The position numbers and the translations under genes were made by a program. Below are positions 1,375 through 61,494 of a stretch of DNA of 64,000 nucleotides, piece after piece. Under the pieces are notes generated by a model. The model saw nothing but the letters and a program-made list of their open reading frames with translations. It searched no databases and was not told where the DNA came from. Origin of the DNA: Escherichia coli (lineage in GTDB: Bacteria; Pseudomonadota; Gammaproteobacteria; Enterobacterales; Enterobacteriaceae); assembly GCF_050320075.1 (NCBI RefSeq), contig NZ_CP190018.1. One strand, written 5' to 3'. Each line of letters starts with the position of its first letter. Within the stretch, counting starts at the first letter, position 1.

Positions 1375-1818
1375 TTAAACCTGCTTCGCCACAGCGATAA
1401 TCGCCTCGCTTAACGCATTCAACCCCTGGCTTCGTGAGGCGCTAAGCTGCGCACGCAATCCCAGCTCATCAAACAATGCCAGCGGCGACTGTGCCTGCAA
1501 TTCGGCGGCGGTTTTCCCCTCAACGGCAGTCAACAACACCGCCAGCAGGCCGCGCACAATGCGCCCTTCGCTGTCGCCAAAGAAATGCATCTTGCCGTTT
1601 TCAGCCATGGTATATCCCAGCCAGACGCGGTTTTCGCATCCGGCAATCTCTTTAGCCTGCGCTTTTAACTCGTCTGGCAAAGCAGGAAGCTGTTTCCCCA
1701 GCATGATCAACTGGCGATATTTATCTTCCCATTGCGTCAACGGTGCGAAGGTATTGCGTAACGTTTCTGCGGTTACGGTTGTGCCGAACGGATGTCCGGC
1801 GAATTGCGGGTTCGTCAT
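1375..1818 (-). CDS. csdE: sulfur acceptor protein CsdE (SufE-like)
   Basis: 147-aa ORF recognised as CsdE; start overlaps csdA stop by 1 nt. Confidence 0.9.
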
Positions 1819-3023
1819 TAATCCACCAATAATTCCAGCGCGCGGTCAACGGCATTCACCAGCGCATCCACATCACTCTTTGTATTATATGGCGCAAAAG
1901 AGGCGCGCAGTGTGCCGGTTACGCCTAATTCTGCCAGTAGCGGCTGAGCGCAATGCTGCCCGGCCCGCAGGGCAATACCGTACTCCGCCAGCAGCGTCAC
2001 CATATCGCTGTGATGAACGCCAGCAAAATCAAAGGCCAGCAGGCTGGAATCCTGGCAGCGAAATGAGCGGAAGCCAGGACGTTTTGCCAGCGCATCTTCC
2101 GCTAGCGTTGCTAAGCTACGGCTCCAGCTTTCGGCCTGGTTGATATCGTAATCTGCCAGCCATTCCAGCGCCGCGCTTAATCCTATGACACCAGCGACAT
2201 TTGGCGTTCCGGCTTCCAGTTTCCACGGCGCAGATTGAGTCGTGAAGCCGTCAAAACTCACTTCGTGAATCATTTTGCCGCCACCCAGCCAGGGTGACAT
2301 CGCTTCCAGCAGTTCTGATTTGCCATACAGCACGCCGATACCCGTCGGGCCATACAGTTTGTGACCAGAGAAAGCATAGAAATCAATATCCAGTTGCTGA
2401 ACATCCGCAGGGAAATGCACCGCCCCCTGAGCACCATCAACCATCACCACCATCCCGGCTGAATGAGCAAAGGTAATCGCTCGCGCCAGATCCGGGCAAC
2501 CGCCAGTCACGTTCGACATCTGACCCAACGCCAGAATCCGACTACGGGGAGTAATCAGTTCTGGCAACAAATCGACATCCGGCAGTCGCTGCGCATTAAG
2601 CGGCAATTTCACCACTTTGGCTCCCGTTTGTTGGGCGACCATCAGCCAGGGGACGAGGTTGGCGTGGTGTTCTGCCACGCTGACAATAATCTCATCGCCC
2701 GGTTGCAGACGTGGACGCGCATAGCATTGTGCCACCATGTTGATGGATTCAGTGGTGCCGCGCGTCCAGACGATAGTTTTGTCATCTGGTGCATTCAGTA
2801 ATTGCGCCACTTTCTCTCGTGCAGCTTCATAACGCGCGGTCAGGCGTTGGGCTTCGGCAAACTGGCTGCGATGGACGTTTCCGGCGCTCAGGCTGTAAAA
2901 CTGTCGGGTGGCTTCAACCACGGCTTCAGGTTTAAGCGCGGTCGCGGCGCTGTCGAGATAGACGCCCGCATCCTGAAGTGCGGGAAACTGGGCGCGAAAC
3001 TGCGCGGGATTAAAAACGTTCAT
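1818..3023 (-). CDS. csdA: cysteine desulfurase CsdA (PLP-dependent)
   Basis: ORF 1818..3059; start placed at ATG 3021-3023 (MNVFNPAQF...) giving 401 aa; upstream extension likely an alternative-start artefact. Confidence 0.9.
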
Positions 3024-3211
3024 GGTACTCCTCGGCTTGATGAACCGATCGTGACGCAAAATTCACTTTGATACAAGGAGAGTGCTAACCATCAGAATTA
3101 TCTGGATATCCTGGCGAAGCCGCGTAAGTAACATATGCTGAATAGTGTTAGGCGTTAATTTTAGCCTGTTAATCAATACTATTAAGATTTATTAATCGCT
3201 TTAAGGAGAAG

Positions 3212-3442
3212 ATGATGAAAAAGACTGCCGCAATTATTTCTGCCTGTATGCTGACTTTTGCCCTGAGCGCCTGTTCCGGTTCGAACTATGTGATGCACAC
3301 CAATGACGGACGTACCATCGTCTCTGACGGCAAACCACAGACTGATAACGATACCGGTATGATTTCGTATAAAGACGCTAATGGCAACAAACAGCAGATC
3401 AACCGTACTGACGTGAAAGAGATGGTCGAACTGGATCAGTAA
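3212..3442 (+). CDS. ygdI: small lipoprotein (DUF903 family) with lipobox LSAC
   Basis: 76-aa ORF with signal peptide and lipobox cysteine (FALSACSGS); position between csdA and gcvB. Confidence 0.75.
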
Positions 3443-3458
3443 TTCGCGATCGCAAGGT

Positions 3459-3664
3459 AAAAAAAAGCACCGCAATTAGGCGGTGCTACATTAATCACTA
3501 TGGACAGACAGGGTAAATGTACAGGAAGTGAAAAAAGGTAGCTTTGCTACCATGGTCTGAATCGCAGACCAATTGCAAACACAACAACACAACATCACAA
3601 CCGTAAGCCAAAAGTTCACCAGAACACGCATTCCGATAAAACTTTTCGTTCCGGCTCAGGAAGT
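3459..3664 (-). ncRNA. gcvB: GcvB small regulatory RNA (Hfq-dependent, represses amino-acid and peptide transporters)
   Basis: Reverse complement begins ACTTCCTGAGCCGGAACGAAAAG and ends in hairpin GCACCGCCTAATTGCGGTGC plus T8; GU-rich stretch GTTGTGATGTTGTGTTGTTGTGTTTGC present; divergent from gcvA. Confidence 0.9.
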
Positions 3665-3792
3665 GCCGCCACTATAGGTATTTGCTGGTAGAAGCTCAAC
3701 GGACAATTTATAATGGCTCAGATTAAAAAAACTAATAGGTTACACAGTGTGATCTAATTGTTAAATTCATTTAACATCAAAGTTTAAAAGCC
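3665..3792. promoter_or_regulatory. divergent gcvB / gcvA promoter region
   Basis: 128-bp AT-rich interval between the gcvB 5' end and the gcvA start; location only, sites not mapped. Confidence 0.5.
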
Positions 3793-4710
3793 ATGTCTAA
3801 ACGATTACCACCGCTAAATGCCTTACGAGTTTTTGATGCCGCAGCACGCCATTTAAGTTTCACTCGCGCAGCAGAAGAGCTTTTTGTGACCCAGGCCGCA
3901 GTAAGTCATCAAATCAAGTCTCTTGAGGATTTTCTGGGGCTAAAACTGTTCCGCCGCCGTAATCGTTCACTCCTGCTGACCGAGGAAGGGCAAAGCTATT
4001 TCCTCGATATCAAAGAGATATTTTCGCAATTAACCGAAGCGACGCGTAAACTCCAGGCCCGTAGCGCCAAGGGGGCGTTGACGGTCAGTTTACTCCCCAG
4101 TTTCGCCATTCATTGGTTGGTTCCGCGACTTTCCAGCTTTAATTCAGCTTATCCGGGAATTGACGTTCGAATCCAGGCGGTTGATCGTCAGGAAGATAAG
4201 CTGGCGGATGATGTTGATGTGGCGATATTTTATGGTCGGGGCAACTGGCCGGGGCTACGGGTGGAAAAACTGTACGCCGAATATTTATTGCCGGTGTGTT
4301 CGCCGCTACTGCTGACTGGCGAAAAACCCTTGAAGACCCCGGAAGATCTGGCTAAACATACGTTATTACATGATGCGTCGCGCCGTGACTGGCAGACATA
4401 TACCCGACAGTTGGGGTTAAATCATATCAACGTTCAGCAAGGGCCAATTTTTAGCCATAGCGCCATGGTGCTGCAAGCGGCTATCCACGGGCAGGGAGTG
4501 GCGCTGGCAAATAACGTGATGGCGCAATCTGAAATTGAGGCTGGACGTCTTGTTTGCCCGTTTAATGATGTACTGGTCAGTAAAAACGCTTTTTATCTGG
4601 TTTGTCATGACAGCCAGGCAGAACTGGGTAAAATAGCCGCCTTTCGCCAATGGATCCTGGCGAAAGCCGCTGCTGAACAAGAAAAATTCCGCTTTCGTTA
4701 TGAACAATAA
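3793..4710 (+). CDS. gcvA: LysR-family transcriptional regulator of the glycine cleavage system
   Basis: 305-aa ORF with N-terminal LysR HTH (LNALRVFDAAARHLSFTRAAEELFVTQAAVSHQIKSLE); recognised as GcvA. Confidence 0.92.
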   Translation: MSKRLPPLNALRVFDAAARHLSFTRAAEELFVTQAAVSHQIKSLEDFLGLKLFRRRNRSLLLTEEGQSYFLDIKEIFSQLTEATRKLQARSAKGALTVSLLPSFAIHWLVPRLSSFNSAYPGIDVRIQAVDRQEDKLADDVDVAIFYGRGNWPGLRVEKLYAEYLLPVCSPLLLTGEKPLKTPEDLAKHTLLHDASRRDWQTYTRQLGLNHINVQQGPIFSHSAMVLQAAIHGQGVALANNVMAQSEIEAGRLVCPFNDVLVSKNAFYLVCHDSQAELGKIAAFRQWILAKAAAEQEKFRFRYEQ

Positions 4711-4728
4711 TTTACGTAGGGTACGACC

Positions 4729-5124
4729 ATGACCAGCCGTTTTATGCTGATTTTCGCCGCCATTAGCGGCTTCATTTTTGTGGCTCTGGGCGCTTTTGGC
4801 GCGCATGTGTTAAGTAAAACCATGGGGGCCGTTGAGATGGGCTGGATCCAGACCGGTCTCGAATATCAGGCGTTCCATACGCTGGCGATCTTAGGTCTGG
4901 CGGTGGCAATGCAGCGTCGCATCAGTATCTGGTTTTACTGGAGTAGCGTTTTCCTCGCGTTAGGCACGGTGCTGTTCAGCGGCAGCCTTTATTGCCTGGC
5001 GCTGTCCCATCTGCGTTTGTGGGCATTTGTCACACCGGTTGGCGGCGTGAGCTTCCTCGCGGGCTGGGCGTTAATGTTAGTTGGTGCTATCCGTTTAAAG
5101 CGCAAGGGCGTAAGTCATGAATAA
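4729..5124 (+). CDS. ygdD: DUF423 inner membrane protein
   Basis: 131-aa hydrophobic ORF with about four predicted TM segments; K-12-like position. Confidence 0.8.
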
Positions 5125-6217
5125 GGTTGTATTGCTGTGCCGTCCGGGCTTTGAAAAAGAGTGCGCCGCAGAAATTACCGATAAAGCCGGCCAGCGGGAA
5201 ATTTTCGGTTTTGCCCGCGTGAAAGAGAATGCGGGTTATGTCATTTATGAATGTTATCAACCTGATGATGGCGATAAGTTAATCCGTGAGCTGCCGTTCA
5301 GTTCATTAATTTTTGCCCGCCAGTGGTTTGTGGTGGGGGAACTCCTGCAGCATTTGCCGCCAGAAGATCGTATTACTCCCATTGTCGGCATGTTACAGGG
5401 CGTAGTAGAGAAGGGCGGTGAACTGCGTGTTGAAGTTGCCGATACCAACGAAAGCAAAGAGTTGCTGAAATTCTGCCGTAAATTCACCGTGCCGCTACGC
5501 GCTGCCTTGCGCGATGCGGGTGTGCTGGCGAACTATGAAACGCCGAAGCGTCCGGTTGTGCATGTATTCTTTATTGCACCAGGCTGCTGCTATACCGGTT
5601 ACTCATACAGCAACAATAATTCGCCGTTCTATATGGGCATTCCGCGCCTGAAATTTCCGGCAGATGCGCCGAGTCGTTCCACGCTCAAACTGGAAGAGGC
5701 ATTTCATGTGTTTATTCCTGCGGATGAGTGGGATGAACGCCTGGCGAACGGGATGTGGGCGGTGGATTTGGGCGCTTGCCCTGGTGGCTGGACCTACCAA
5801 CTGGTGAAGCGCAACATGTGGGTTTATTCCGTCGACAACGGCCCGATGGCGCAAAGTCTGATGGATACCGGGCAGGTGACGTGGCTGCGGGAAGATGGTT
5901 TCAAATTCCGTCCGACACGCAGCAATATTTCCTGGATGGTATGCGATATGGTTGAAAAACCGGCGAAAGTTGCGGCATTGATGGCGCAGTGGCTGGTTAA
6001 TGGCTGGTGCCGTGAAACCATTTTCAACCTCAAACTGCCGATGAAAAAACGCTACGAAGAAGTGTCACACAATCTGGCGTATATTCAGGCACAGCTTGAT
6101 GAACATGGCATAAATGCTCAGATTCAGGCGCGGCAGTTGTATCACGATCGCGAAGAAGTGACGGTGCACGTCCGCCGTATCTGGGCTGCGGTGGGTGGTC
6201 GTCGCGACGAGCGATAA
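5117..6217 (+). CDS. rlmM: 23S rRNA 2'-O-ribose C2498 methyltransferase
   Basis: 366-aa ORF recognised as RlmM (YgdE); 8-nt overlap with ygdD. Confidence 0.88.
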
Positions 6218-6225
6218 CAGGCAAG

Positions 6226-6250
6226 GCCGGGGCGTCGTCTCCGGCCTGCT
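6226..6250. terminator. intergenic hairpin between convergent rlmM and fucR (possible bidirectional terminator)
   Basis: AGGCCGG-10 nt loop-CCGGCCT stem-loop at 6224-6247; no strong U-tract on either strand. Confidence 0.3.
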
Positions 6251-6260
6251 ACCCTTTCCG

Positions 6261-6992
6261 TCAGGCTGTTACCAAAGAAGTTGCAACCTGGCGCTCATCA
6301 GAAATAATGTGCGTTACCTCATCCAGATGCCCGATGCGGGCTTCCCCTGAACGATTAAATTTACTTTTATCAATCAATAACAACGATTGCGCGGCGCGTT
6401 TTAATAGCATTGATTTGTAATCAGCGTTGATGGCATTGGAGTCCCACAGTGCGCCGCTGCTATCGATCCCTTCACAAGAAAAAATAAACAGATCGATTTC
6501 CAGCGATTTAAGTTGGGAAATCAGCGAGGGATTGACGTAACAGCCATATTTGCGCTCAAGTGTGCCGCCGGAACTGATTAGTTGAATGCGTTCGCGTTTA
6601 CCGAGTTCATGGCAAATCGGATGGCTATTGGTGAAGACCTGGATGTTGATGTCAGGCAACTGGCGTGCCAGATACCAGCAGGTTGAACTGGCGTCTAAGG
6701 CTATTACCATCCCTTCTTCAATCCACGCGAGCGCCTCGCGCGCGATATCTGCTTTATGCGCATAATGGCTTTTCAGCCGGATGTGAAAGGGATCGCCACT
6801 GTCTTGATTTTGACGGTGGATATATTTAGCGCGCCCATGATTGCGCAGAATTTTACCCTGCGTCTGTAATTCATTGAGATCGCGACGAATGGTTTCTTTA
6901 CTGACCTTTAGCTGTTCAGAGAGAGCTTCCGTGGTCAGGCTGGTATGGTTCAGCAGCAGGTCGACTATCGCTTGCTGGCGTGCCGCTTTCAT
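6261..6992 (-). CDS. fucR: DeoR-family L-fucose operon activator
   Basis: ORF 6261..7001; start placed at second ATG (MKAARQQAIVDLL) giving 243 aa; DeoR-type HTH near N-terminus. Confidence 0.9.
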   Translation of the reverse strand: MKAARQQAIVDLLLNHTSLTTEALSEQLKVSKETIRRDLNELQTQGKILRNHGRAKYIHRQNQDSGDPFHIRLKSHYAHKADIAREALAWIEEGMVIALDASSTCWYLARQLPDINIQVFTNSHPICHELGKRERIQLISSGGTLERKYGCYVNPSLISQLKSLEIDLFIFSCEGIDSSGALWDSNAINADYKSMLLKRAAQSLLLIDKSKFNRSGEARIGHLDEVTHIISDERQVATSLVTA

Positions 6993-7049
6993 ATTTTTCA
7001 CCCCATCATTCGATAACCGCCCGCGTCATGCGGGCGTACCGGTATGAGA

Positions 7050-21833: not shown

Positions 21834-22200
21834 GTCGACAGGGAGTCAGACAACGAAGTGAACATCAGGATGATGACACTTCTGAAGGACACACCAGGAT
21901 GGTGTTTCAGGGAAAGGCTTCTGGATGAAGCGAAGAGGATGACGCAGGACGCGTTAAAGGACACCTCCAGGATGGAGAATGAGAACCGGTCAGGATGATT
22001 CGGTGGGTCAGGAAGGCCAGGGACACTTCAGGATGAAGTATCACATCGGGGTGGTGTGAGCAGGAAGCAATAGTTCAGGATGAACGATTGGCCGCAAGGC
22101 CAGAGGAAAAGTTGTCAAGGATGAGCAGGGAGCAACAAAAGTAGCTGGAATGCTGCGAAACGAACCGGGAGCACTGTGAATACAGTGCTCCCTTTTTTTA
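21834..22200 (+). ncRNA. csrB: CsrB sRNA (CsrA-sequestering)
   Basis: About 365 nt with reiterated CAGGATG/AGGATG/AGGA motifs (at least 8 exact AGGATG plus many GGA variants); ends in intrinsic terminator GGGAGCACTGTGAATACAGTGCTCCC plus T7 (22163-22199); 5' end approximate. Confidence 0.9.
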
Positions 22201-22244
22201 TTCCTGCTATCCTTCGCGGCAGTTTTTCTTATTGAGGTTGCTTT

Positions 22245-41960: not shown

Positions 41961-43209
41961 GAGTTCCCCGCGCCAGCGGGGATAAACCGTTTGCTGAGTG
42001 TGCATACACACTTGAACATCAGAGTTCCCCGCGCCAGCGGGGATAAACCGCTATCAGTAACAACCTGGTAAATATCGGTTTTGAGTTCCCCGCGCCAGCG
42101 GGGATAAACCGTTTTCGGGGCCATAAATGGCGCTCATTTATGTGAGTTCCCCGCGCCAGCGGGGATAAACCGGGAAAATAAACGCGTTATTCCTTGATGG
42201 GTGCGAGTTCCCCGCGCCAGCGGGGATAAACCGAGCAACAGGTATTTCATATGGCCTGCCGTGCTGAGTTCCCCGCGCCAGCGGGGATAAACCGGCCAGC
42301 GGCGCTGAGTACGACGACCTGATTAAGAGTTCCCCGCGCCAGCGGGGATAAACCGTCAATACAACAGCAATGCTGGAGCTGGAAAAAGAGTTCCCCGCGC
42401 CAGCGGGGATAAACCGTGGTGGGATAGCTGCTCTGCCAGCGTGTCGCGGAGTTCCCCGCGCCAGCGGGGATAAACCGTGGGCGCAGCTCATGTATTCCAA
42501 TAAGGATATGAGTTCCCCGCGCCAGCGGGGATAAACCGAGATTCGCGCAATGTACGGTAAAGACAGCACCGAGTTCCCCGCGCCAGCGGGGATAAACCGC
42601 CATTCTTGTTGTCGTTCATCAAGCGCAGGGGGAGTTTCCCGCGCCAGCGGGGATAAACCGTTTGTTTTGATGATTTATCAGTATATGAATTGGAGTTCCC
42701 CGCGCCAGCGGGGATAAACCGATTTTTGCGCGGCCTGCATGAAACCAGTGGCAAAGTTCCCCGCGCCAGCGGGGATAAACCGGTACCGTTGAGCAATGGT
42801 GGGTAAATGGTGCTGAGTTCCCCGCGCCAGCGGGGATAAACCGATTTAGATACGGCACACAGGAATGCGCTGGATGAGTTCCCCGCGCCAGCGGGGATAA
42901 ACCGCATGGGAGTCCAGATTACAAATTCCAGAATGGGAGTTCCCCGCGCCAGCGGGGATAAACCGCGCCAGTCTGAGGTTTTCCGGTCATACATCGTGAG
43001 TTCCCCGCGCCAGCGGGGATAAACCGACCGTTGCTACACATATGATCAGGCATGTGCCGAGTTCCCCGCGCCAGCGGGGATAAACCGGACGATGAGACGC
43101 CCTGGTGTGCCGCGTTCGTGAGTTCCCCGCGCCAGCGGGGATAAACCGCGTTTAGCTCCGCAATGTTGGATATCACTGATGAGTTCCCCGCACCAGCGGG
43201 AATAAACCA
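41961..43209 (+). CRISPR. type I-E CRISPR array, 21 repeats and 20 spacers
   Basis: 29-bp repeat GAGTTCCCCGCGCCAGCGGGGATAAACCG recurring with exact 61-bp periodicity (41961 + 61n); all spacers 32 bp and unique; last repeat (43181-43209) degenerate. Confidence 0.98.
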
Positions 43210-43680: not shown

Positions 43681-43800
43681 GGGATAAACCGAACTAGTTA
43701 AAGTTTTTATTATGTTCCCTGCATCAGCGGGGATAAACCGGACTTGTTATCATTTTTTAAGTTGTCGAACTTATGTTCCCCGCGCCAGCGGGGATAACCA
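43681..43800 (+). CRISPR. remnant mini-array (partial repeat, two degenerate repeats, two spacers)
   Basis: GGGATAAACCG fragment (43681-43691), degenerate repeat ATGTTCCCTGCATCAGCGGGGATAAACCG (43712-43740), 32-bp spacer (43741-43772), degenerate repeat ATGTTCCCCGCGCCAGCGGGGATAACCA (43773-43800). Confidence 0.8.
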
Positions 43801-58557: not shown

Positions 58558-60269
58558 TGAGCGAAAAACATCCAGGGCCTTTAGTGGTCGAAGGAAAACT
58601 GACAGACGCCGAGCGCATGAAGCTTGAAAGCAACTACCTGCGCGGCACCATTGCGGAAGATTTAAACGACGGTCTGACCGGCGGCTTTAAGGGCGATAAC
58701 TTCCTGCTGATCCGCTTCCACGGCATGTATCAGCAGGATGACCGCGACATCCGCGCCGAACGTGCTGAACAGAAGCTGGAGCCACGTCATGCAATGCTGT
58801 TGCGCTGCCGTCTGCCGGGTGGCGTGATTACCACCAAACAGTGGCAGGCGATCGATAAATTTGCCGGTGAAAACACCATCTATGGCAGCATTCGCCTGAC
58901 CAACCGCCAGACGTTTCAGTTCCACGGCATTCTGAAAAAGAACGTCAAACCGGTGCACCAGATGCTGCACTCGGTCGGTCTTGATGCGCTGGCGACTGCT
59001 AACGACATGAACCGTAACGTACTCTGCACCTCGAACCCTTACGAGTCGCAGCTACACGCGGAAGCGTATGAATGGGCGAAGAAAATCTCTGAACATCTGC
59101 TGCCGCGTACCCGCGCGTATGCGGAGATCTGGCTCGATCAGGAAAAAGTCGCCACCACCGATGAAGAACCGATCCTCGGTCAGACTTATTTGCCGCGTAA
59201 ATTCAAAACTACGGTAGTGATCCCGCCGCAGAACGATATCGATCTGCATGCCAACGACATGAACTTCGTGGCAATCGCCGAAAACGGCAAGCTGGTGGGC
59301 TTTAACCTGTTGGTGGGCGGTGGGCTTTCTATCGAACACGGCAACAAGAAAACCTACGCCCGCACGGCGAGTGAGTTTGGCTATCTGCCGCTGGAGCATA
59401 CGCTGGCGGTGGCAGAAGCCGTCGTGACGACTCAGCGCGACTGGGGTAACCGTACCGATCGTAAAAATGCCAAAACCAAATACACGCTGGAGCGCGTGGG
59501 GGTTGAGACGTTTAAAGCGGAAGTGGAGCGTCGCGCGGGGATCAAATTTGAACCGATCCGTCCATATGAGTTCACCGGACGCGGCGATCGTATTGGCTGG
59601 GTTAAAGGCATTGATGATAACTGGCACCTGACGCTGTTTATCGAAAATGGTCGCATCCTTGATTATCCTGGGCGTCCGCTGAAAACCGGCCTGCTGGAGA
59701 TCGCGAAGATCCACAAAGGCGATTTCCGCATTACGGCGAACCAGAATCTGATCATCGCCGGTGTGCCGGAAAGCGAGAAAGCGAAGATCGAGAAGATTGC
59801 CAAAGAGAGCGGGTTAATGAATGCCGTCACGCCGCAGCGTGAAAACTCAATGGCCTGCGTGTCATTCCCGACTTGCCCGCTGGCGATGGCCGAAGCCGAG
59901 CGTTTCCTGCCGTCTTTTATCGACAACATCGATAATTTAATGGCGAAACATGGTGTCAGCGATGAGCATATCGTGATGCGTGTAACAGGCTGCCCGAACG
60001 GTTGTGGTCGCGCGATGCTGGCGGAAGTGGGCCTGGTGGGTAAAGCGCCGGGTCGCTACAACCTGCATCTTGGCGGCAACCGCATTGGGACACGTATCCC
60101 ACGGATGTATAAAGAAAACATCACCGAACCGGAAATCCTGGCGTCGCTTGATGAACTGATAGGGCGCTGGGCGAAAGAGCGCGAAGCGGGTGAAGGCTTC
60201 GGCGACTTTACGGTGCGTGCGGGCATCATTCGCCCGGTGCTCGATCCGGCGCGCGATTTGTGGGATTAA
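58557..60269 (+). CDS. cysI: sulfite reductase [NADPH] hemoprotein beta component
   Basis: 570-aa ORF recognised as CysI; TAATG overlap with cysJ. Confidence 0.95.
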
Positions 60270-60288
60270 CCATCAGCCCGGTCTTGTA

Positions 60289-60321
60289 GGCCTGATAAGA
60301 CGCGTGAGCGTCGCATCAGGC
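60289..60321. repeat. REP / palindromic unit between cysI and cysH
   Basis: GGCCTGATAAGACGCGTGAGCGTCGCATCAGGC, same arms as the REP split by the IS. Confidence 0.7.
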
Positions 60322-60342
60322 AAGGCAAACAGTGAGGAATCT

Positions 60343-61077
60343 ATGTCCAAACTCGATCTAAACGCCCTGAACGAACTGCCGAAGGTAGATCGCATTCTGG
60401 CGCTGGCAGAAACTAACGCCGAACTGGAAAAACTGGACGCTGAAGGCCGCGTTGCCTGGGCGCTGGATAATCTGCCCGGTGAATATGTACTTTCTTCCAG
60501 TTTCGGCATTCAGGCGGCGGTGAGCCTGCATCTGGTGAATCAGATTCGCCCGGATATTCCAGTGATCCTCACCGATACGGGTTACTTGTTCCCGGAAACC
60601 TACCGCTTTATTGACGAGTTAACGGACAAACTCAAGCTCAACCTGAAAGTGTACCGCGCTACCGAAAGCGCCGCCTGGCAGGAAGCACGTTACGGAAAAC
60701 TGTGGGAGCAGGGTGTTGAAGGCATTGAAAAGTACAATGACATCAACAAAGTCGAACCGATGAACCGGGCGCTGAAAGAACTGAATGCGCAAACCTGGTT
60801 TGCTGGCCTGCGCCGTGAACAATCCGGCAGCCGCACCAATTTACCGGTGCTGGCAATTCAGCGTGGCGTATTTAAAGTGCTGCCGATTATCGACTGGGAT
60901 AACCGAACTATTTATCAGTACCTGCAAAAACATGGCCTGAAATATCACCCATTATGGGATGAAGGATATTTATCGGTCGGTGATACCCATACAACCCGTA
61001 AATGGGAACCCGGCATGGCGGAAGAAGAAACGCGTTTCTTTGGCTTAAAAAGAGAATGTGGGTTACACGAAGGGTAA
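60343..61077 (+). CDS. cysH: phosphoadenosine phosphosulfate (PAPS) reductase
   Basis: ORF 60190..61077; start placed at [12 protein letters not shown] giving 244 aa; upstream extension overlaps the REP and is rejected. Confidence 0.93.
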
Positions 61078-61128: not shown

Positions 61129-61341
61129 ATTTTGCGAGCAGCATTCCTGATTTTAAACGTGAACGCCGCTGGAAGAATTATCAGGTATAGAATGGCGTTG
61201 GGTGCTTGAGGCTGTCTGGCGTTAAGCATTCGCGAGGTTCCAGATGGACAAAAGCCCCAGGCGATATTTCTATCAACCTGAGGCCAGCGTTCGAACCTAA
61301 GCAATTCGAATGTTAGTCTCTTCTTTGCAGGGAGGCAAGAC

Positions 61342-61494
61342 ATGCTGACAAAATATGCCCTTGTGGCAATCATCGTACTGTGTTGTACAGTACTGGGATT
61401 CACGCTGATGGTAGGCGACTCGTTGTGTGAGTTGAGTATCAGAGAACGTGGTATGGAGTTTAAGGCAGTTCTCGCTTACGAATCGAAGAAGTAG
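61342..61494 (+). CDS. Hok-family type I toxin (50 aa, HokE/HokX-like)
   Basis: ATG 61342 preceded by GGGAGG; product [50 protein letters not shown] has one TM helix and the conserved Hok C-terminal region; below the ORF-track size cutoff. Confidence 0.8.

Follow-up and report, generated by a model that had tools for sequence, protein, structure and literature searches.

We identify the 206-nt minus-strand element described here, with a confidence close to certainty, as the Escherichia coli gene gcvB, which encodes GcvB, a small RNA that acts in trans and depends on Hfq. The identification draws on sequence comparison and is made because a covariance-model match, conserved synteny and a sequence 100% identical to that of the curated K-12 gene come together at a single locus. 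It has every property of GcvB that can be tested on sequence, and it is already known biology, GcvB being one of the best-characterised bacterial small RNAs; for a copy identical to the reference, the discovery value is small. We further propose that the terminal hairpin of gcvB also bounds the mRNA of its convergent neighbor, ygdI, and we show that an open reading frame (ORF) running from this hairpin across ygdI is not a gene.

The window, which is the whole 64,000-nt stretch of E. coli DNA analysed here, was scanned against Rfam, and three families scored above their gathering scores, GcvB among them. The GcvB model (RF00022) matched at 3664..3459 (-) with 199.0 bits against a gathering score of 42 (E = 1.1e-46), and the match covers model positions 1-204 of 204 and is not truncated. 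The original prediction had placed a GcvB sequence on the minus strand at exactly these coordinates and had named an Rfam scan with the GcvB model as its check, with the lack of a match as the outcome that would count against it; the scan returned the opposite. Two accompanying statements were likewise confirmed, namely that a GcvB terminator is present on the minus strand (the stem at 3487..3466 is followed by eight T) and that GcvB is divergent from gcvA (3664 on the minus strand, ATG at 3793 on the plus strand). The coordinates of all features are listed in Table 1.

Table 1. Features of the gcvA-gcvB-ygdI region, in window coordinates
Feature	Coordinates	Strand	Details and basis
gcvB, 206-nt GcvB sRNA	3459..3664	-	Transcription start 3664, 3' end 3459; Rfam RF00022 and identity to b4443
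gcvB sigma-70 promoter	3671..3699	-	-35 TTGAGC 3699..3694, 17-nt spacer, -10 TATAGT 3676..3671; promoter scan
Shared gcvA/gcvB control block	3700..3740	.	gcvA -10 TATAAT 3709..3714 (+) and CTAAT box 3732..3736
gcvA, LysR-type regulator	3793..4710	+	ORF list, Pfam HTH_1 and LysR_substrate, annotation
5' stem-loop SL1, about GcvB nt 9-61	3604..3656	-	Single-sequence fold and consensus fold
R1, G/U-rich and single-stranded, nt 63-89, main seed	3576..3602	-	GGUUGUGAUGUUGUGUUGUUGUGUUUGC; sequence, alignment, consensus fold
Internal Rho-independent terminator t1	3531..3551	-	GGTAGCAAAGCTACC and T6; terminator scan
Invariant block, nt 131-172, with R2 and R3	3493..3534	-	Each column invariant in 11 species
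Terminator t2	3459..3487	.	8-bp stem 3466-3473 / 3480-3487, 6-nt loop
ygdI, 75-aa DUF903 lipoprotein gene, convergent with gcvB	3215..3442	+	Pfam, RefSeq annotation, Term-seq
Spurious 97-aa ORF, TTG start	3182..3475	-	Codon-for-codon antisense to ygdI

Relative to MG1655 gcvB (b4443, NC_000913.3 2942696..2942901), the window is identical at 206 of 206 positions. Near the locus, the window runs in the opposite orientation to K-12, such that a window coordinate equals 2946360 minus the K-12 coordinate. The neighbours, the promoter hexamers and the two terminators are all alike; there are zero differences inside the RNA and two single-base differences upstream. The window is nonetheless a segment of an E. 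coli chromosome other than K-12 itself, with SNPs in the flanking genes and none between 3043 and 3745. Across complete E. coli genomes, the 801 bases around the locus are present in 5425 of 5426, with at least 99% identity in 5390. Between csdA and gcvA, the window departs from K-12 only at the two upstream positions, 3745 and 3788. Both fall within the gcvA leader/control region and outside the conserved promoter block, the latter 5 nt ahead of the gcvA ATG.

The comparative set for GcvB was taken from genome contigs, one genome per species, scanned with the 14-mer CACTTCCTGTACAT, a pattern too short to be selective whose matches are mostly due to chance. Among the matches listed (at least 120 loci), ten carry a full-length GcvB of 154-198 bits; these come from E. 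albertii, Citrobacter werkmanii, Enterobacter cloacae, three other Enterobacter-labelled genomes, Superficieibacter, Yersinia artesiana and two Photorhabdus. Together with the window they form a small alignment of 11 sequences, in which the t2 stem, nt 131-172 throughout and the greater part of R1 do not vary, and the SL1 interior and the loops are variable. The consensus fold retains SL1, the t1 and t2 hairpins and a further hairpin in the R2/R3 region, features seven pairs with compensatory changes, and leaves R1 unpaired. Gene order is conserved as well: gcvA is divergent upstream of gcvB in all eight related loci that reach that far, ygdI is convergent downstream in all eight loci outside Photorhabdus, and the order gcvA, gcvB, ygdI is shared among relatives. 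The 14-mer also occurs on five contigs of a single genome, that of Candidatus Enterovibrio escacola (loci L060-L064), where the GcvB model finds no match; these are probably copies of a repeat that carries the 14-mer by chance.

Within the RNA, each module known from GcvB could be located. The 206 nt fold with -62.1 kcal/mol, lower than 200 of 200 shuffled sequences (z = -3.6). The inner stem of SL1 carries compensatory changes; pair 30/49, for example, is AU in three sequences, UA in three, UG in two and GU in one. The 3' two-thirds of R1 are invariant across the 11 species, R2 corresponds to CACUUCCUGUACAUUU (3530..3515), and R3 to nt 154-162 (3511..3503), so that both the unpaired R1 seed and the conserved R2/R3 block of a GcvB RNA are in place. 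Two Rho-independent terminators follow from the terminator scan. The t1 hairpin (3551..3537) with its T6 would give a short form of about 134 nt, and the t2 hairpin (AGCACCGC/GCGGUGCU, 3487..3466) is followed by eight U and closes the 206-nt form. Similarly, the gcvB genes of E. coli and Yersinia pestis have been reported to contain two terminators, with RNAs of about 130 and 206 nt (PMC1557403). A published Term-seq table gives K-12 2942894 as the GcvB 3' end (PMC7815308); in window coordinates this is 3466, where the U-tract begins. The annotated end, at 3459, lies 7 nt further on, and the 3' end given for the RNA in vivo is therefore approximate. The same published data contain internal GcvB 3' ends at window 3592 and 3597 on the minus strand (nt 73 and 68), both inside R1, which are present in LB at OD 2.0 and in M63 and absent in LB at OD 0.4; they may represent decay products or fragments protected by pairing.

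The RNA also contains ORFs of 46 aa and 37 aa, the former at 3491..3631 (-) with its ATG at 3631, and their presence would be compatible with gcvB being a dual-function RNA that encodes a small protein besides acting by base pairing. The 46-aa ORF, however, matches no Pfam family, and it crosses a 7-nt indel in the R1 of Yersinia and Photorhabdus that would shift its frame. We consider a dual function highly improbable, and a small protein inside gcvB was rejected.

Upstream, gcvB and gcvA point away from each other, and the gcvB start is separated from the gcvA ATG by 128 bp. The -10 element of gcvB ends 7 nt ahead of the start (promoter scan), and most positions of both promoter hexamers are invariant across nine species, from Escherichia to Photorhabdus. 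In the alignment of this control region we find a near-invariant block, ACCTATTAGTTTTTTT.ATCTGAGCCATTATAA, that takes in the -35 and -10 of gcvB, the -10 of gcvA and the CTAAT box. The box sits at about -68 to -72 relative to the gcvB start and is presumably the GcvA site, Wilson et al. 1995 having reportedly linked the CTAAT motif to GcvA. The gcvA product itself features a LysR helix-turn-helix domain (E = 2.5e-23) and a LysR substrate-binding domain (E = 1.4e-40) in Pfam. A GcvA binding region has been mapped upstream of gcvB (PMC1557403), and the divergent gcvA/gcvB arrangement, together with the seed regions, has been described previously (PMC9299463, PMC4474525).

The function of the RNA is established in the literature. 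Expression of gcvB is controlled by GcvA and GcvR in response to glycine (PMC9299463, PMC4474525, PMC1557403), and GcvB, in a manner that depends on Hfq, represses a very large set of mRNAs for amino-acid transport and metabolism (PMC9299463, PMC4474525). The R1 seed acts on C/A-rich sites, R1-dependent repression has been published, and the R3 positions include G156, G160 and C162 (PMC9299463); the SroC sponge, in turn, directs GcvB to decay by RNase E (PMC4474525). Every sequence element used by published GcvB studies is present and unchanged here, and both the GcvA/GcvR regulation and the Hfq-dependent repression are expected to carry over from the identical K-12 locus to this strain. When glycine is plentiful, GcvA would activate the gcvB promoter, and otherwise GcvA plus GcvR would repress it. 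The resulting transcripts would end at t1 (about 130 nt) or at t2 (206 nt) and, with Hfq, R1 (and R2/R3) would pair with C/A-rich sites near ribosome-binding sites and block translation. Predicted targets are the many mRNAs for amino-acid and peptide transport and metabolism, and SroC would trigger the decay of GcvB by RNase E.

Downstream, gcvB runs toward ygdI. The ygdI product carries a DUF903 domain (PF06004, E = 7e-24, residues 24-72) and an N-terminal lipoprotein signal with a lipobox cysteine, in which the motif LSAC is conserved in most orthologues, as is characteristic of YgdI/YgdR lipoproteins. Between the end of the ygdI stop codon, at 3442, and the GcvB 3' end, at 3459, there are only 16 nt; the corresponding spacer measures 10-27 nt in eight Enterobacteriaceae and 149 nt in Yersinia. 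Folding finds no structure that fits the ygdI-gcvB spacer besides the single hairpin at 3466..3487, which has a predicted energy of -14.3 kcal/mol on the minus-strand RNA versus -15.4 kcal/mol on the plus-strand RNA. The adjoining run at 3459..3466 reads U8 on the minus-strand RNA and A8 on the plus strand. The terminator scan called t2 on the minus strand only and no terminator on the plus strand, where the tail after the hairpin is ACAUUAAU and contains no U-tract.

The original prediction held that the t2 hairpin probably also ends ygdI transcription. In published Term-seq data, the primary ygdI 3' end lies at K-12 2942870, 2942869 and 2942870 (-) in LB at OD 0.4, LB at OD 2.0 and M63, respectively (PMC7815308). 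Each 61-nt sequence listed there begins at the ygdI TAA and, by arithmetic, extends from 50 nt before the 3' end to 10 nt past it. The ygdI 3' end thereby falls at window 3490/3491, 3 nt beyond the stem, in all three conditions. Its published score in LB at OD 2.0 is very high, at 1,164,820. The prediction therefore stands in part: the ygdI transcript does end directly past the hairpin, but the U-tract and the terminator call that an intrinsic terminator would show on the plus strand are absent. A single hairpin lies between the convergent genes and both transcripts end at it and overlap, although the locus lacks the U-tract in both directions of a classical bidirectional intrinsic terminator, with U8 on the minus strand only. 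We infer that the t2 hairpin also delimits the convergent ygdI mRNA at its 3' end, with the two RNAs overlapping by 25-32 nt across it; that it acts as a terminator in the ygdI direction is suggested by the mapped 3' end.

Three routes could lead to this 3' end: weak intrinsic termination, hairpin-induced pausing with head-on collision of RNA polymerases, or readthrough followed by exonuclease trimming back to the hairpin. We lean toward termination of some kind. Alternatively, t2 would be no terminator for ygdI at all; the polymerase would read through, and 3'-to-5' exonucleases would trim the RNA to the stable hairpin, leaving the end at 3490. This is a tenable explanation, if not the one we expect. 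It accommodates the lack of any terminator-like site called on the plus strand and the composition of the tail that follows the stem (ACAUUAAUCACU), with three U among its first 8 nt. Intrinsic termination usually occurs 7-9 nt after the stem, and an end just 3 nt after it sits more comfortably with trimming. The authors of the Term-seq study also point out that mapped 3' ends are in many cases products of processing. Trimming is harder to reconcile with a hairpin that is itself strong on the plus-strand RNA, and no downstream Rho termination region is listed on the ygdI strand between K-12 2942600 and 2943199 (PMC7815308). Furthermore, pausing and head-on collision have been proposed for bidirectional terminators that lack intrinsic-terminator features; a hairpin between convergent genes can halt the polymerases arriving from both sides even where no U-tract follows (bioRxiv 10.1101/2022.10.23.513370), and the gcvB partner is strongly transcribed. 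The short distance between the ygdI stop and the GcvB end in eight species, given above, likewise leaves no room for a second terminator.

In the literature, the term "bidirectional terminator" together with gcvB returned only unrelated uses. Overlapping bidirectional terminators between convergent genes were reportedly described by Ju, Li and Liu in 2019. The arrangement at ygdI/gcvB resembles these in its convergent pair, its one hairpin, the 3' ends on either side and the overlapping RNAs, but it is distinct in that the gcvB direction is classically intrinsic, with U8, and the ygdI direction has no U-tract. The pair is a clear natural example of a terminator that is intrinsic on one side and bounds the convergent mRNA as well, and could serve as a template on which collision-driven and trimming models are tested against each other.

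It is conceivable that t2 is more than a passive end and that convergent transcription couples ygdI to the glycine-controlled gcvB, since the 3' end of the ygdI mRNA is a perfect complement of GcvB along 25-32 nt and glycine controls the transcription of gcvB. Polymerase collision at the hairpin might govern how the ygdI mRNA acquires its 3' end, or that 3' end, which is very abundant in stationary phase, might pair with the terminator/Hfq-binding module of GcvB and affect its stability. We consider such coupling unlikely.

On the gcvB strand, some transcription continues beyond t2. A region of termination by Rho is given by Adams et al. 2021 at K-12 2943134 (window ~3226), on the minus strand of the window and antisense to ygdI, with a Rho score of 10.3 and p = 2e-71 (PMC7815308). 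Reads in 800-nt intervals on its upstream and downstream sides number 1860 and 44 without bicyclomycin, and 1464 and 355 with bicyclomycin (PMC7815308). Bicyclomycin thus raises downstream coverage about 8-fold, which indicates that a fraction of gcvB-strand transcription escapes t2. This fraction would be ended by Rho, antisense to ygdI, and Rho termination implies that the escaping RNA is treated as untranslated.

This bears on the 97-aa ORF, which overlaps gcvB by 17 nt (3459..3475) and which the original prediction had dismissed as not a gene. If it were a real protein-coding gene overlapping ygdI, its 97-codon frame would be uninterrupted, as it is, and it would need to be transcribed, which the rise from 44 to 355 reads past t2 on the minus strand would permit. 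Its codons, however, occupy the same triplets as those of ygdI on the opposite strand, and the frame is open because the ygdI of the window contains no TTA, CTA or TCA codons, the antisense stops in that register. The TTG start lies within the t2 hairpin loop, and the 20 nt before it (ATTAATGTAGCACCGCCTAA) contain no Shine-Dalgarno sequence. The product matches no Pfam family, and the ORF is unannotated in curated K-12 and in one PGAP record. Termination by Rho, as noted, points to untranslated RNA on this strand.

Comparison with relatives settles the question. The frame is broken in five of seven other Enterobacteriaceae by one such codon each (E. albertii, the closest relative, Citrobacter, two Enterobacter and Enterobacter sp. 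Bisph1), and by three stops in Yersinia, while ygdI is intact, at 73-75 codons, in all relatives compared. Between 65% and 92% of the substitutions relative to the window fall at ygdI third positions, including 23 of 25 in Citrobacter and 33 of 40 in Enterobacter sp. BIGb0383, and identity among relatives is 75-96% for YgdI versus 48-69% for the antisense translation. Purifying selection has therefore not kept the 97-aa frame open, nor does it have a usable start. The stops in relatives, the third-position substitutions and the lack of a Pfam match bear out the dismissal, and we regard a real gene here as next to impossible. The frame-conservation and substitution tests led us to reject it as a codon-opposed shadow of ygdI. 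Like other shadow ORFs it is the ygdI triplets read backwards; unlike a plain one, it runs beyond the ygdI stop into the gcvB terminator loop, where a chance TTG provides its start.

The shadow frame matters for annotation. PGAP records with the same sequence show an empty gap between ygdI and gcvA, into which an ORF caller could mistakenly place the 97-aa frame. The PGAP RefSeq record NZ_CP025849.1 is 100% identical to the window over 3100..3900 and has nothing annotated between ygdI and gcvA (window 3443..3792). The csrB gene is likewise unannotated in this record; of the two records compared, ncRNA gcvB is found only in the curated MG1655 record. We used the NZ_CP025849.1 annotation only where the ORFs of the window agree with it (1375..7001), and a position-by-position comparison of the two sequences over 50 kb gave 26,615 mismatches, from base 1 on.

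Finally, several features were observed elsewhere in the window. A type I-E CRISPR array at 41963..43208 comprises 21 copies of GTTCCCCGCGCCAGCGGGGATAAACC at 61-nt spacing (chance expectation 0), with two degenerate repeat copies at 43714 and 43775, about 500 nt beyond the array; its position and length differ from those of the array annotated in NZ_CP025849.1. An Rfam sok match (RF01794, 111.7 bits) at 61200..61357 (+) overlaps the start of a 50-aa Hok-like ORF at 61342..61494 (+), just downstream of a cysH-like ORF (60190..61077), and the region 61200..61494 is probably a chromosomal hok/sok locus. A full-length CsrB sRNA is present at 21843..22202 (+) (Rfam RF00018, 382.9 bits, E = 2e-111) and lies between syd and yqcC by the annotation of a closely related strain.
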